Assembly: GCA_031409275.1 (NCBI GenBank)
Contig: JANNXA010000009.1
Location: forward strand, 96,001 to 160,000
Direction: 5' to 3'
Source: Planctomycetota bacterium
GTDB lineage: Bacteria; Planctomycetota; B15-G4; SIAN01
DNA: 64,000 nucleotides
Below the pieces are notes generated by a model, which saw only the letters and a list, made by a program, of their open reading frames with translations, was not told where the DNA came from and ran no database searches. The position numbers and the translations under genes are program-made. Shown here one piece after another: positions 20,619-54,946 of the stretch (position 1 is its first letter; the number at the start of each line of letters is the position of its first letter).

Positions 20619-21004
20619 GAGCGGCAAGCTACCCCGTCTGATTCACGAAACCCCTGCTGCGGCTCGGTCTGCCGGCGCATGACTTCGTCGGAAAACCGCG
20701 TTCCTTCCTCAGCGGGTCAGCCAACCCGCATCGTCGGAACCGCGATTTCCCTCCTCGTCATGCACCGACATCCCGTCGCCTCGCGACGGGGATCGAGAAT
20801 CAAACGGGCTAATCTCCGCCGCCGCTTGGAACGACGGTCGTCACGTCCGCGCCCAACGAGGTGGGAACATCCGGGGTGCCGCAGGCGTACGAAACGTCCG
20901 ATCCAGACGATCGCACGGCATCGGTGCGCCGCGAGATCGAGATCGACGAATCACAAGCACCCAAGGACAAGGCGGCGTGCGCCGTCATGCAGATGGAGGT
21001 GGAG

Positions 21005-22117
21005 ATGCGCTGTTGGCTCCTCGTCGCGGGAGCAGTCGTGCTGCTTGGAGGCGGACTCCGGGCACAGGACACCCTCGACAAGATTCAGAAAGAGACGAAC
21101 CTCGTCCTGGCGCGCGGCGCCAAGGCGGGTCCGGACCTCGCCGAGATCGAGCGCCTGCTCGGTCGCGCGCGGGACCTCTCGATCGACCTCAAGGCCGACG
21201 ACGAGGGGTTGCGGGCGAGCTTGCTGGTGCTCGACCTGTCGAGCTTCCTTGCGGAGGAGCGACAGAGCGAGCTCTTCACCGAGGTCTTCGACTCGCTGAT
21301 CGAGAACCACCTGCAGAGCGATGGGCTGGCGCAGGTCGTTCTGATGCGGCTGGCCAACCCTGCTCCCCACCTCGCGAAGGCGGCGGGCGAGTACTTCGAC
21401 TGGATCGCGCGCGATTCGAAGTCGAAGCCGGTGCAGGCGGCGTGCAAGTACACCCGTCTCACCAAGGACGCGGCAGCGGCCGGGAATGTCGCCGACGTGA
21501 AGAAGATGGTGGCGAAGCTCGAGGCGCTGAAGGCGGAGATCGGCAAGGAGCCGGCCGCGTTCGGTCAGACCTACGGGCAGATGCTCGACGAGTTGATCGA
21601 GTCGCTGAAGATCGTCGGGACGCCGGCCCCTGAAATCGAGGGCAAGGACCTCGACGGCGTCGCGTTCAAGCTCTCCGACTATCACGGCAAGGTCGTGCTG
21701 CTCGACTTCTGGGGCTATTGGTGAGGCCCTTGCCGGGGCATGTTCCCGCACGAGCGGTCGCTCGTGGCACGACTGAAGGATGATCCTTTCGCTCTGGTCG
21801 GAGTGAACAGCGACGAGAACTTCGAGGAGCTGAAGAAGAAGGAGTACCTCGAAGAGAAGATCACTTGGCGCAGCTTCCAGAACAGCGCGGCGACGCCGCC
21901 GATCTCGGAGCAGTGGAAGGTGAGTGGCTGGCCCACGCTCTACCTCGTCGACGCCGAAGGCAAGCTGCGCAAGAAGTGGATCGGCAGCCCGAGCGAAGCG
22001 GAGCTCGACGCGGCGATTGATGGCCTCGTGGCCGAAGCCACAGCGGGCAAAGGCAAGGCCGCTCCCGCCAAGCCCGTGAAGAAGGCCGATCCGAAGAAGA
22101 GCGGCGCTCCGAACTGA
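21005..22117 (+). CDS. Exported TlpA/redoxin-family thiol-disulfide oxidoreductase, probable selenoprotein (Sec at TGA 21722-21724, W-U-G-P-C)
   Basis: ORFs 20861-21724 and 21740-22117 are in the same frame and join as GKVVLLDFWGYW-TGA-GPCRGMFPHE...VGVNSD...GWPTLYLVD; signal peptide; hairpin after the TGA. Confidence 0.88.
21725..21759 (+). promoter_or_regulatory. Putative bacterial SECIS element
   Basis: GGCCCTTGC-CGGGG-CATGT-TCCCG-CACGAGCGGTC directly after the TGA; G-containing apical loop 15-19 nt downstream and a lower stem GGCC/GGTC. Confidence 0.55.
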
Positions 22118-22165: not shown

Positions 22166-22253
22166 TCGATCCGCGGCCCCGCGTCGAACCCGACGCGGGG
22201 CCGTTTGCGTCCCGGCGAACCGGCATGCTGCAGCCGACCGCGTGCGCCGGTCG

Positions 22254-25810: not shown

Positions 25811-27982
25811 CTACTGTCCCGTAGCGCCGCCCTTCTTCAATTCCGGCAGATCGCAGCCGATCGCCTTGGTGCGATCGTTCGTGATCTTCTTGCCGGCCAG
25901 CAACGCGTCGAGCGCGACGCGCAAGTCACGAACCGTGGGTGCCGGCCGCTTCTTCGCCAGGTCGCCCCACTGGTCGTCGATCCGGCCGCGGTACGCGATG
26001 GTGCCGCCAGCGGTGATCACCGCAACTTCGGGCGTCGCGTCGATGCCGAGCTTCTTCGCCAGCACGTGCTTCGGATCGAGCAGGAGCCGCGGACGCAGGC
26101 TGTACTCGCGCGCGTGAGCTGTCGCCGATTCGGCGCTCGTGTCGGGATCGACGTGCACGACGAAGAAGCGCAGCGGCTGCTCGGCGTAGTCGGCGACGAT
26201 CGCGTTGATCTCCGGCGCATACGAGTTGGCGATCGGGCAATCGGGCGTCACGAAGAGCATCACGTTGGCCTTCTGCTCGCCCGGATCGAGCGGCCAGCAC
26301 GCCACGCCGGCGACGTCGCTCCACTTCGGGCCGCTGCCCGCCTTCTGCGGCGCCTCGGACTTCGGCTTCGCGGGCGCCTCGCCCTCCTTGCCGGCCGGCG
26401 CAGGTTTGGCAGCGCCCGGCTCCTCGCCGGTCAGCGCGGCGAGCTCGGCCGCATCGATGTCGCCATCGCCATTGCTGTCGAGCCGCCCGACGAACGGCTT
26501 CATCTGCGCCGGGATCTCATCCTTCGAGATCGTCCCGTCCTTGTTGAGGTCGAACTGCTTCACGCGCGCCGCGAGCCCTTCGAGCAGCCCGCCCCCGCCG
26601 CCCGCGCTCTTTCGCGCACCACGCGCCATCGAGGCGATCCGGTTCAACCGGATGCCGGCCAGCAGCGCGGCCGAGTCCGCTTCGCGCGTCGGCACCAGCA
26701 ACAGCGAGACGCTGCCCATCTCGTCGGTCGTCTCTTCGCCCCACCGCACGCGCTGTGGCGGGTCGTGCGGATTGTTCTTGTTGGCGGCGGAGTTGTCGTA
26801 GGTGAGCTCGACCTCGACCTTGGTGCCCTTCGGCAACGGCAGCGGCTCGCGGTACTGGTACTGGTTCTGCCAGTCGAAGTCCCACTGGTCGATGAAGAAG
26901 GCGGACTCGCGCTCCGATTGCGGCCGCGTCACCCACACCTGCATCGTCGTGCAGAGCAGGTGGGCATGGCCGCCGACCATCACCGCCTCGGCGTCGACCG
27001 GCAGCTCGAACGAGTCGCGCAGCTTGAACGCCGCTTCGCCGGCCGGGATGTCGAGACCCGCGCTGACGCCAAAGAGCGGCGGCAGTTGCAGCGTGGCCAT
27101 CGTGCGCGCGGGCGGCTCCTTCGCGAAGTGCAGCCCGAGCACCGTCTGCTCCGTCTCCGCCTTCCCGGACGGATGGAGGTGGCTCTGCAAGACGAGGTCG
27201 GCGCCCTTCGGGACGCGGCGCGCGAGACCTTGCGGCAAATGGCGCGGCATGCCGCCGACCGCCCAACCGCCAAGCCCCGCTGTATCCGCGCCCAGCAGCT
27301 GGTTGTCGCCCCCACCCACCATGCGCCGGAATCCAGGCTTGCCGTCCTTGCCATCGATCTGGCGCGCCTCGCCTGTTTCGTCGAGGAAGAAGAGCACGTG
27401 ATGCAGCACCGCGCGCGCGCTCGGCCGCACCTCGATCGCCGTGAGGTAGCGATCCTCCTTGAAGCCGAGCGGCACCAGGAAGTTGCGGTAGATGTCGGGC
27501 CCGCCGGCCGCGACGTCGTAGCCCTTCGGCATCTTCACGACGAGGTCGGGCTCGCCGAGCTGCCACCCTTGCGTGAACTTCGGCAGCGCCGGGGTCTGCT
27601 TCGGATCCCCTTGCGGGCAGCCACCATCCACCCACGCCGTGATCGTCTCGACCTCGCTCACGCTCAACGTGAGTTCGTCGGCGAACTCGCCGTGCCCCTC
27701 GACCGGTTGCCATGGTGGCATCAAGCGGCGCGACACGACCCGCTCGATCATCGTCGAGCGCTTGCGGACCTCCTCGTAGGTCAGCAGCGAGAACGGTCCG
27801 ACCTCGCCCGGTCGATGGCACGAGCTGCAGTTCGAGAAGATGATCGGCGCGACGTCCTTCGCGAAGGTCGGCGGCGCGTCGGCGGCGAGACCGGCGACGG
27901 CGACGCCCGCACCGCTCAGCACGAGGGCGGCGAGGGCGCGGACGCCGCAGCGGATGAAGGAGTGCGCGTGACGATGCAGCAT
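25811..27982 (-). CDS. Exported cytochrome c / type II copper monooxygenase-like / EF-hand / redoxin multidomain protein
   Basis: CSSCH heme motif; LHHV, QSHLH, GHAH and DEM; DLNKDGTISKDE and DSNGDGDIDAAE; C-terminal DCPIANSY...ATPEV...YRGRIDD...AIGC. Confidence 0.85.
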   Translation of the reverse strand: MLHRHAHSFIRCGVRALAALVLSGAGVAVAGLAADAPPTFAKDVAPIIFSNCSSCHRPGEVGPFSLLTYEEVRKRSTMIERVVSRRLMPPWQPVEGHGEFADELTLSVSEVETITAWVDGGCPQGDPKQTPALPKFTQGWQLGEPDLVVKMPKGYDVAAGGPDIYRNFLVPLGFKEDRYLTAIEVRPSARAVLHHVLFFLDETGEARQIDGKDGKPGFRRMVGGGDNQLLGADTAGLGGWAVGGMPRHLPQGLARRVPKGADLVLQSHLHPSGKAETEQTVLGLHFAKEPPARTMATLQLPPLFGVSAGLDIPAGEAAFKLRDSFELPVDAEAVMVGGHAHLLCTTMQVWVTRPQSERESAFFIDQWDFDWQNQYQYREPLPLPKGTKVEVELTYDNSAANKNNPHDPPQRVRWGEETTDEMGSVSLLLVPTREADSAALLAGIRLNRIASMARGARKSAGGGGGLLEGLAARVKQFDLNKDGTISKDEIPAQMKPFVGRLDSNGDGDIDAAELAALTGEEPGAAKPAPAGKEGEAPAKPKSEAPQKAGSGPKWSDVAGVACWPLDPGEQKANVMLFVTPDCPIANSYAPEINAIVADYAEQPLRFFVVHVDPDTSAESATAHAREYSLRPRLLLDPKHVLAKKLGIDATPEVAVITAGGTIAYRGRIDDQWGDLAKKRPAPTVRDLRVALDALLAGKKITNDRTKAIGCDLPELKKGGATGQ

Positions 27983-54160: not shown

Positions 54161-54946
54161 TCAGCCCCCCTTCTCGCCCTGCTCCTGCTTCTTCAACGAC
54201 TGGAACTCCTTCAGGAGCTCCTTCGCCGTCTTCTTGCCGACGATCTTCTTCAGCGGCTTGGCCTCGGGCTTCTCCGCATTCGGATCGAGCACGAACAGCA
54301 CCGGCTGCTCCATCGACCCGACTGCGAAGCGCTTGGCCTCCTCGTTGTCGCGCGAGATCACGACGCGCGCCACCACGAACCTCGCCATCGCCGGGCTGAG
54401 CGTCTCATCGAAGAGCGCCTCCTCCAGCGCGGCCGAATCCTTGCCCTTGGTCGCGAAGAGGAAGAGCACGAGTTTGTCGTCCTTCTTCGCCTCGGCCGCC
54501 GCCGCCTCGAAGGTCGCGTGGAAGCTCTTCGTGTTCGCCTTGGCGATCTTCTCGATCTGCGCCTTCACGCTGGCCGAGTCGCGCCCGCCGAGCGGCTCGA
54601 TCACCTCGCCCTTGCTGTCGGTGAAGATCACCGTCGGGTAGCCGCGCACGCCGTACTTCTTCGACAGGTCGCTGTTCTTCTTGCCCCAGTCGCAGTCGAC
54701 GAAGACGTTGACGATCGACTTGCTGGCCTCGACCACCGCCTCATCGCTGAACGCACCTGCGCTCAGCTGCTTGCACGGGCCTCAGCCAAGGCTCGTGAAG
54801 AACATCATCATCGGCTTGCCCGACGACTTGGCCGCCTTCATGGCCGCCGCTGGTTCGTGGTTCCACGGGATCTTGCCGCCGTCTTGCGCGAGCGCTTCGC
54901 TCGCGAAGAGCGCGGTGGCGGCCACCGCAAGCAACGTCTTCATCAT
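54161..54946 (-). CDS. Exported thioredoxin-fold protein (two Trx-like domains), probable selenoprotein (Sec at TGA 54784-54782, G-U-G-P-C)
   Basis: ORFs 54782-55102 and 54161-54736 are in frame: MKTLL...GKPMMMFFTSLG-TGA-GPCKQL...VDCD...YGVRGYPTVIF; strong hairpin after the TGA. Confidence 0.9.
54746..54767 (-). promoter_or_regulatory. Putative bacterial SECIS element
   Basis: GCTGAGCGC-AGGT-GCGTTCAGC, a 9-bp stem with an AGGU loop, starting after a 14-nt spacer from the UGA. Confidence 0.75.

Follow-up and report, generated by a model that had tools for sequence, protein, structure and literature searches.

What does an in-frame TGA triplet mean when it lies at the catalytic position of a redox gene: the end of the protein or an additional amino acid? 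The question is raised by a gene in a 64,000-nucleotide (nt) stretch of a Planctomycetota bacterium genome (GenBank assembly GCA_031409275.1, contig JANNXA010000009.1, positions 96,001 to 160,000 of the forward strand), which we call the window and whose own numbering is used below. A forward-strand frame runs there from an ATG at 21005 to a TGA stop at 22115-22117 and is open save for a single internal TGA at 21722-21724. We conclude, with a probability of roughly 0.88, that this gene (21005..22117, +; 370 codons plus stop, the in-frame TGA being codon 240) encodes an exported TlpA/ResA-like oxidoreductase whose TGA is predicted to be read as selenocysteine (Sec) via SelB and a selenocysteine insertion sequence (SECIS). 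The gene is real and almost certainly that of a selenoprotein, Sec insertion being predicted from sequence. Our analysis covered the reading frame, the fold, the conservation of the TGA and of a downstream hairpin, and the presence of tRNA-Sec, SelA, SelB and SelD.

A thioredoxin-fold domain continues across the in-frame TGA

A Shine-Dalgarno-like GGAGG, read in the sequence (20995..20999, +), precedes the ATG by 5 nt, and the initial Met coincides with the start of the gene calls of orthologues (P0003, P0004). Gene callers terminate the gene at codon 239 (P0002). Around the internal TGA the frame reads GKVVLLDFWGYW-TGA-GPCRGMFPHE; the residues from the TGA onward are GPCRGMFPHERSLV, and the motifs VGVNSD and GWPTLYLVD lie in frame downstream. 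Matches to the Pfam families AhpC-TSA, Thioredoxin_8, Redoxin and Thioredoxin cross the TGA (residues 204-337), the first three with E-values of 5e-15 to 3e-12 and AhpC-TSA as the best of them (56 bits). In the AlphaFold2 model, based on an alignment of 27 sequences (predicted local distance difference test, pLDDT, 89.6; predicted template modelling score, pTM, 0.79), nine helices between residues 24 and 202 are followed by a thioredoxin fold from 205 to 350 and a disordered Lys/Pro/Ala tail. An earlier note on this DNA, made from the letters alone, had proposed that a complete TlpA domain follows an in-frame TGA placed within a W-U-G-P-C motif, and the frame, the Pfam matches across the TGA and the modelled fold all bear this out.

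The predicted protein begins with a putative signal peptide (residues 1-20, MRCWLLVAGAVVLLGGGLRA followed by QD; 21005..21064, +), with a basic residue, a hydrophobic run and an A-x-A-like LRA; the signal-like N-terminus MRCWLLVAGAVVLLGGGLRAQD is common to the orthologues and has low pLDDT in the model. It is followed by an all-helical repeat domain of nine helices seen in the structure models (residues 22-204; 21068..21616, +), by the TlpA/ResA-like thioredoxin-fold domain delimited with Pfam and Foldseek (residues 205-350; 21617..22054, +) and by the Lys/Pro/Ala-rich tail (residues 351-370; 22055..22114, +), predicted to be disordered (pLDDT 57-63) and not conserved in the alignment. The signal peptide and helical N-terminal region that the note had described are thus matched by a conserved signal-like N-terminus and nine modelled helices. 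The TGA (21722..21724, +) is predicted to encode Sec240, the attacking residue that opens U-G-P-C, and a TGC (21731..21733, +) encodes Cys243, its resolving partner, in an invariant column. The redox motif W239-U240-G-P-C243 and the W-P-T cis-Pro loop (309-311) are both present, with Sec replacing the first Cys, and W239, C243, P248 and W309-P310-T311 are among the invariant or near-invariant alignment columns.

The TGA is conserved in relatives and paired with Cys in homologues

A search of a protein collection returned 219 proteins at E <= 0.001, the best of which had 233-260 residues, no Pfam domain and covered 64% of the query. The 16 short homologues that we fetched (44-79% identical) and the window's own gene call all end exactly at ...DFWGYW (17/17); therefore, the gene callers stopped at the same codon in each of them. 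By contrast with these short products, the fetched full-length homologues are single proteins that carry Cys in the Sec240 column in seven of eight cases (WCPPC, WCGPC, WCAPC, WCPSC) and Ser in the remaining one.

At the genome level, 24 of 42 genomes of the same order contained matches, and the motif codon was TGA in all 31 motif hits, from 30 loci. Across the phylum (E <= 1e-25), homologues occurred in 93 of 401 genomes, often several per genome, and 147 of the 150 matches listed contained a TGA. Many phylum genomes carry 2-7 copies of the Sec-TlpA family. The number of stops inside a match is an unsafe proxy for an active-site TGA; we counted the motifs on the DNA itself because one match with a single TGA proved to be a Cys form. 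We fetched 40 phylum loci, six of them chosen for showing no TGA: 34 were Sec forms, all with TGA at the same codon, five were Cys forms (CPIC, CGSC, CAPC) and one did not match the pattern. Among the distinct Sec-type relatives from the order and the phylum, TGA at this codon and a Cys codon at +3 were found in 64 of 64, down to ~45% identity and with the downstream frame and domain intact. These comparisons, made on sequences, indicate that the TGA is not an accident, and the earlier claim that its position is beyond chance is upheld by the 31/31 motif hits in the order and the 34/34 Sec-type loci in the phylum.

A single-base change from TGC to TGA would be enough to create such a codon by chance, in a pseudogene or through an assembly error. 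That this happened here has next to no probability. The pseudogene explanation is refuted by the comparative data, the TGA being present in all 64 distinct relatives with an intact downstream part. Against an assembly error, a 430-nt contig of another sample matches positions 21687-22116 without difference, and positions 21722-21724 are invariant in four sequencing runs though flanking positions vary (the evidence from sequencing runs consists of assembled contigs only). In an RNA-labelled library, three contigs of relatives bridge the TGA, an observation that shows neither transcription of the window gene nor its decoding.

The TGA might also be a true stop, in which case the gene would encode a 239-residue helical protein and the C-terminal part would be translated separately from an ATG at 21740 or not at all. 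In its favour, gene callers give the truncated product everywhere, 59 of 64 relatives have a Met codon, ATG, at +6, and a GAGG overlapping the TGA lies 13 nt before ATG 21740. However, such a stop would cut the protein inside the thioredoxin fold, after strand beta1, with loss of the attacking residue, and leave a downstream piece devoid of a signal peptide, whereas both halves are modelled as one domain (pLDDT ~90) and the full-length Cys homologues are single units. Moreover, the codon after the TGA is not Gly in 10 of the 64 relatives, and the GAGG is gone where it encodes Pro (CCN, six rows). A true stop would also leave without purpose the frozen hairpin, described below, that lies at SECIS distance. 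We therefore hold a true stop to be very improbable; the test proposed beforehand, separately translated homologues with a ribosome-binding site before ATG 21740, gave no good site and only single-unit homologues.

Selenocysteine machinery and genetic code

The genome that contains the window (92.9% complete, 55 contigs) encodes the required components. ARAGORN found a single tRNA with anticodon tca in the whole genome; it is a tRNA-SeC, scores 76 bits on the Rfam tRNA-Sec model and is not on the window contig. selB (334 bits), selA (484 bits) and selD (338 bits) all exceed their curated cut-offs. selA adjoins selD at C40:252211-254558 (-), the selD match having one in-frame TGA; contig C40 also has the tRNA-Sec gene, at a distance of 47 kb, and selB is on contig C29. 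The search for Sec machinery called for by the earlier note was thus positive for all four genes.

Sec and Cys at one codon cannot be separated from sequence alone, as that note had stressed, and homologues do carry Cys at this place, so that decoding of UGA as Cys or Trp (by a suppressor tRNA, a recoded genome or a mischarged tRNA-Sec) has to be weighed. This part of the caveat stands, but the alternative itself is much weakened. TGA is the stop of 37 of the 46 coding-like open reading frames (ORFs) of the window, the gene studied here included; its being the main stop argues against a general recoding. The only UCA-anticodon tRNA is tRNA-Sec, and selA, selB and selD are present. Furthermore, selA occurs in 90 of the 93 phylum genomes that have a homologue. 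The three others comprise two genomes with stop-free Cys forms and one, 84% complete, with a Sec form. Decoding as Cys or Trp consequently keeps a very slim chance. With selA in 290 of the 401 genomes sampled, Sec use looks like the rule and not the exception in the phylum as a whole; an earlier publication describes it for Planctomycetes (PMC4807772).

A candidate SECIS hairpin downstream of the UGA

A SECIS-like hairpin, CACGAGC-GGUC-GCUCGUG (21749..21766, +), which codes for H-E-R-S-L-V, follows the UGA. It has 7 base pairs and a 4-nt GGUC loop that starts 31 nt after the UGA, and its folding energy is -10.5 kcal/mol (z -3.97), equalled in stability by one of 200 shuffled sequences. As in the SelB-dependent SECIS of the Escherichia coli fdhF type, the hairpin lies inside the coding region just after the UGA. 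The fdhF SECIS loop is also GGUC. The published criteria for bacterial SECIS (bSECIS) elements comprise a loop of 3-9 nt, an upper stem of 4-16 base pairs and a G in the first two loop positions, as well as a UGA-to-loop distance of 16-37 nt and a minimum free energy <= -7.5 kcal/mol (legend of Fig. 2A in PMC13188914). The hairpin fits this model in stem, loop, spacing and energy, with a spacing near the long end of the range and, at variance with the model, no bulged base.

Its conservation is unusual for a stretch of coding sequence. Of 63 distinct relatives, 42 have the same 18 letters without a change, and the genome has exactly four copies of the 18-mer, all of them in TlpA-like paralogues and 27 nt downstream of the TGA. 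Its codons are frozen: Arg+11 is CGG in 47/51, Ser+12 TCG in 47/47, Leu+13 CTC in 55/57 and Val+14 GTG in 50/62 relatives. Control codons of the same genes vary instead, Ser-16 being TCG in 24/60 (six codons used), Arg-13 CGC in 26/43 and Arg+16 CGC in 12/34. Frozen synonymous sites next to variable controls imply selection on the hairpin at the RNA level. In the 63-row alignment, the named stem is paired in 88.9% of cells, against 18-41% when it is slid along the sequence. Other candidate selenoprotein genes of the genome also have stable hairpins 17-30 nt past their TGA, with G-rich loops.

Several observations weigh against this assignment. The same codons encode a conserved H-E-R-S-L-V peptide, so that part of the hairpin conservation is at the protein level; this peptide is absent from the five Cys-type genomic loci and kept in some Cys homologues from the database (P0020), which would fit a recent conversion. 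Covariation is thin, with one of seven pairs changing on both sides (5 cells), RNAalifold found no consensus for all 63 sequences, and the upper stem is disrupted in 13 of the 63 relatives. Taken as a whole, the 69 nt downstream of the TGA are no more stable than shuffled sequences (z -0.74), the 18-mer alone being exceptional. Rfam, searched over the whole window at gathering thresholds, gave no match. Finally, relatives from two families of the same order (L035-L037 and L040-L042) do not have the 18-nt hairpin, encode HEKEMV or HEREMV at this place and form a longer hairpin instead, ~31-75 nt after the UGA, in which changes preserve the lower stem. This longer hairpin may represent another SECIS type in the same protein family; a minority of members thus appear to depart from the bSECIS-like element of the window gene, and since some relatives fold another hairpin, the family has no single SECIS model. 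The support for the GGUC hairpin as SECIS is therefore conservation and model fit, not covariation.

Two other hairpins were considered and rejected. The earlier note had singled out a structure with a CAUGU loop (CGGGG/UCCCG); it can form, but it is no more stable than expected (-5.7 kcal/mol, z -0.17, 78 of 200 shuffles as stable), its loop does not begin with G and its distance from the UGA is only 14 nt, neither of which fits the bSECIS model, and the GGUC hairpin takes its place as candidate signal. A GGCCC/GGGCC hairpin right after the TGA (-8.0 kcal/mol, z -1.06) does not exceed shuffled sequences in stability either and is lost in relatives that have Pro or other codons there.

Fold and likely function

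The C-terminal domain was closest, in Foldseek comparisons, to ResA (1st9/2h1b; template modelling score 0.92 by target, root-mean-square deviation 1.5-1.6 over ~138 columns), other matches being a Bacillus thiol-disulfide oxidoreductase (4nmu), pneumococcal Etrx2, CcmG and the TlpA-ScoI complex. With ResA of Bacillus subtilis, CcmG/DsbE and TlpA of Bradyrhizobium, the window protein shares the fold, a W-C-x-x-C-type centre, the cis-Pro W-P-T loop and, judging by its signal-like N-terminus, probably the export signal. It differs from them by the Sec in place of the attacking Cys, by the additional N-terminal domain and by the lack of adjacent genes for cytochrome c maturation or Sco proteins. 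The N-terminal domain, when modelled alone (pLDDT 94.8), matched no Pfam family and no structure of the PDB in Foldseek at E <= 0.001. In VIA-align, designed repeats scored best (Z 10.1) and tetratricopeptide repeat (TPR) domains reached Z 7-9. The resemblance to TPR and other helical repeats is only generic, these Z scores being under the meaningful level for helical repeats and perhaps reflecting a common arrangement only. The combination of a signal-like peptide, a ~200-residue helical domain and a Sec-TlpA domain recurs in the 20 delimitable loci of the same order, with helical domains that diverge strongly between paralogue groups.

On the other side of the balance, the signal peptide was judged by eye from sequence features, and the protein stays far below the NCBIfam cut-offs for ResA (66 vs 170), TlpA (55 vs 230) and DsbE (33 vs 123). 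As none of these models exceeds its cut-off, a specific function is not transferable from the corresponding enzymes; the window protein is in the fold class of the TlpA/ResA/CcmG enzymes and is not an orthologue of a studied one. Gene neighbourhoods gave no pointer to a client either: by Pfam, there was no shared partner among 39 selected flanking ORFs, of 75, beside the relatives at 30 loci.

The main functional rival is that the same selenoprotein works as a periplasmic peroxidase of the peroxiredoxin (Prx) or glutathione peroxidase (GPx) type, with Sec240 as peroxidatic and Cys243 as resolving residue. Its best Pfam match is indeed AhpC-TSA, a 'Prx-like thiol:disulfide oxidoreductase' with UxxC is a listed selenoprotein family (Table 1 of PMC13188914 and the tables of PMC1088965), and, in line with a theme of oxidative stress, a true Prx and MsrA of the same genome have a predicted Sec as well. 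However, the nearest solved structures are disulfide reductases (ResA, Etrx, CcmG, TlpA) and not peroxiredoxins, the W-x-G-P-C motif is of thioredoxin type and the Prx signature PxxxTxxC is absent. We accordingly regard the peroxidase role as unlikely and favour a TlpA/ResA-like oxidoreductase.

Relation to known selenoproteins

TlpA-like (cd02966)/Redoxin-family selenoproteins with UxxC were predicted in 2005 from marine metagenomes by Zhang, Fomenko and Gladyshev (PMC1088965; Table 1 of PMC13188914), and the tables of the Sargasso Sea survey list four 'thiol-disulfide isomerase-like' and 22 'Prx-like' sequences (PMC1088965). According to their published description, these proteins resemble the window protein in the TlpA/redoxin thioredoxin fold, the Sec at the first position of UxxC and the widespread Cys homologues, and they too were found via a Sec/Cys pair and a downstream hairpin. 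The window protein differs from this set by its ~180-residue helical-repeat domain and signal peptide, by belonging to a planctomycete multi-copy family and by its near-fixed 18-nt hairpin. The NCBIfam entry NF041054, 'ResA-like WAxxUGC motif-containing protein', is likewise a ResA-like selenoprotein with an N-terminal extension. Membership in it was rejected (34.6 bits vs a cut-off of 300; W-U-G-P-C instead of WAxxUGC), which makes it a different family.

Planctomycetes are not mentioned in the portions of PMC1088965 and PMC13188914 considered here, and the word stem 'Planctomyc' is absent from the main text of PMC13188914 and of the paper on BSepDB (PMC13326102), a database that, by its description, excludes 'sp.' and 'bacterium' genomes. 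Our literature search found no paper on a planctomycete Sec-TlpA family, although supplementary tables may list such genes. The window protein is, in sum, a mis-annotated addition to the predicted TlpA-like UxxC selenoproteins, with a lineage-typical helical head and an unusually fixed hairpin.

Other selenoprotein candidates and a possible electron relay

A genome scan for in-frame TGAs with coding-like sequence on either side returned 90 places, mostly ordinary gene ends, from which 13 were selected for their redox-like context. In 12 of the 13, the catalytic TGA lies within a Pfam domain; these are four genes of TlpA/redoxin type (three paralogues of the window gene and one other), four Thioredoxin_7 genes (including the second TGA-bearing gene of the window and the tail of a DsbD-like gene), a peroxiredoxin, a glutaredoxin, an MsrB-MsrA fusion and an FG-GAP protein. 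The scan had been suggested by the earlier note, which inferred an expanded exported selenoproteome; this view is supported by the Sec/Cys pair, the TGA conservation, the Sec machinery and at least these 12 genes.

The second gene in the window (54161-54946, -), which the note had placed 33 kb away, has its TGA (54782-54784) 33,060 nt from the first and on the minus strand, in the context FFTSLG-U-GPC, with Thioredoxin_7 and Thioredoxin_2 matches across it. A signal-like peptide comes first and a second C-terminal domain last, and a 9-bp hairpin with an AGGU loop begins ~17 nt after the TGA. The DsbD-like gene (C51:106264-109000, -) encodes the one clear DsbD-type protein of the genome, with a DsbD_TM match of 94 bits, two N-terminal DsbD-alpha-like repeats and two membrane Cys motifs. 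The first redox residue of its last domain, a C-terminal Thioredoxin_7, is encoded by TGA (C51:106506), within LLNFTGFT-U-INC. The MsrB-MsrA fusion (SelR + PMSR; contig C37, +) has its TGA (62433) at the MsrA catalytic position, G-G-U-F-W-G, and a signal- or lipoprotein-like N-terminus that predicts export. A Cys-type TlpA-like paralogue (WCPIC; C37:48924-49379) lies ~13 kb from it.

Ten further TGAs from the genome scan are at C7:86341, C7:112758 and C28:70576 (all -), at C47:5887, C16:170423, C34:79169 and C34:159256 (all +), and at C51:271010 (-), C30:17689 (+) and C23:25248 (-). They belong to the three paralogues of the window gene, the other redoxin, two Thioredoxin_7 proteins, the peroxiredoxin, which is fused to a long peptidase-like tail, the glutaredoxin and the FG-GAP protein, which has U-C. 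The tenth has no Pfam match and shows the context C-U-G-S-G-K and an 8-bp hairpin with a GGUC loop.

How might the window protein work among these? With the ribosome on the UGA, SelB carrying Sec-tRNA would attach to the GGUC hairpin, 31 nt further on, leading to insertion of Sec240, and the protein would be directed to the periplasm by its signal peptide. Once exported, it could use Sec240, in the exposed first place of the motif, to attack a client disulfide (or a sulfenate or peroxide) and Cys243 would resolve the resulting selenenyl-sulfide. The DsbD-like membrane protein, with its own TGA in the C-terminal thioredoxin domain, might then re-reduce the redox centre, and the helical-repeat domain would choose the client.

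A fair guess, drawn by analogy, is that the exported Sec-type MsrB-MsrA is one candidate client. We propose a chain from DsbD via TlpA-like proteins to Msr because of its analogy with the CcdA-Etrx1/2-MsrAB2 surface repair system of Streptococcus pneumoniae, which, as described in PMC3914529, has an exported TlpA-like thioredoxin in common with the window protein. Etrx2 (4hqz) was among the best structural matches. Like that system, the genome has a DsbD/CcdA-type membrane reductase and an exported MsrB-MsrA. It differs in that all three candidate components have a catalytic TGA and their genes are unlinked. We found no link between the window paralogue and the DsbD/Msr chain, and no conserved partner in the gene neighbourhoods. 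Taken to its full extent, the window gene would be one adaptor in a periplasmic electron relay of Planctomycetes that runs entirely on selenium, in which Sec-DsbD would feed the Sec-TlpA family, helical heads would pick clients including the exported Sec-MsrB-MsrA, and the SECIS hairpin of the relay would dictate the H-E-R-S-L-V beside the active site. This larger scheme is tentative, and we consider it doubtful as a whole.

Genomic context of the gene

The window gene looks like a unit of its own, since its upstream neighbour is divergent. A scan for sigma-70 promoters found none, and a terminator scan returned a minus-strand site only. A terminator-like, G+C-rich hairpin of 14 bp followed by UUUG lies 56 nt past the stop (22173..22204, +; z -3.6 for a 101-nt stretch), but was passed over by the simple terminator scan on account of its short T run. 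The neighbours in the window are unrelated: a uracil-DNA glycosylase (UDG)-like protein, a metallophosphoesterase, a ThuA-type protein and a leucyl-tRNA synthetase (LeuRS). ARAGORN found no tRNA in the window. Beside the relatives, flanking ORFs showed lineage-local repeats only: one paralogue group is flanked by a 2-oxoglutarate (2OG)-oxygenase and another by a methyltransferase, and extracytoplasmic function (ECF) sigma factors occur twice. Elsewhere in the window, the minus strand at 25811-27982 encodes an exported-looking protein of 723 residues with a CxxCH haem motif near its N-terminus, EF-hand loops and no TGA; its C-terminal redoxin-like domain has a single Cys (D-C-P-I-A).

Significance

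The nearest database entries of the window protein are 'hypothetical proteins' of 239-260 residues with no domain. As public records cut the gene at the TGA, annotations of planctomycete genomes miss an entire class of exported redox enzymes, and the near-invariant 18-nt hairpin offers a simple and specific marker to find and repair such truncated calls. This hairpin also shows clearly how an RNA signal shapes a protein motif. If it is true that the DsbD-like, TlpA-like and MsrB-MsrA proteins cooperate, these bacteria would have a selenium-based repair chain in their periplasm.

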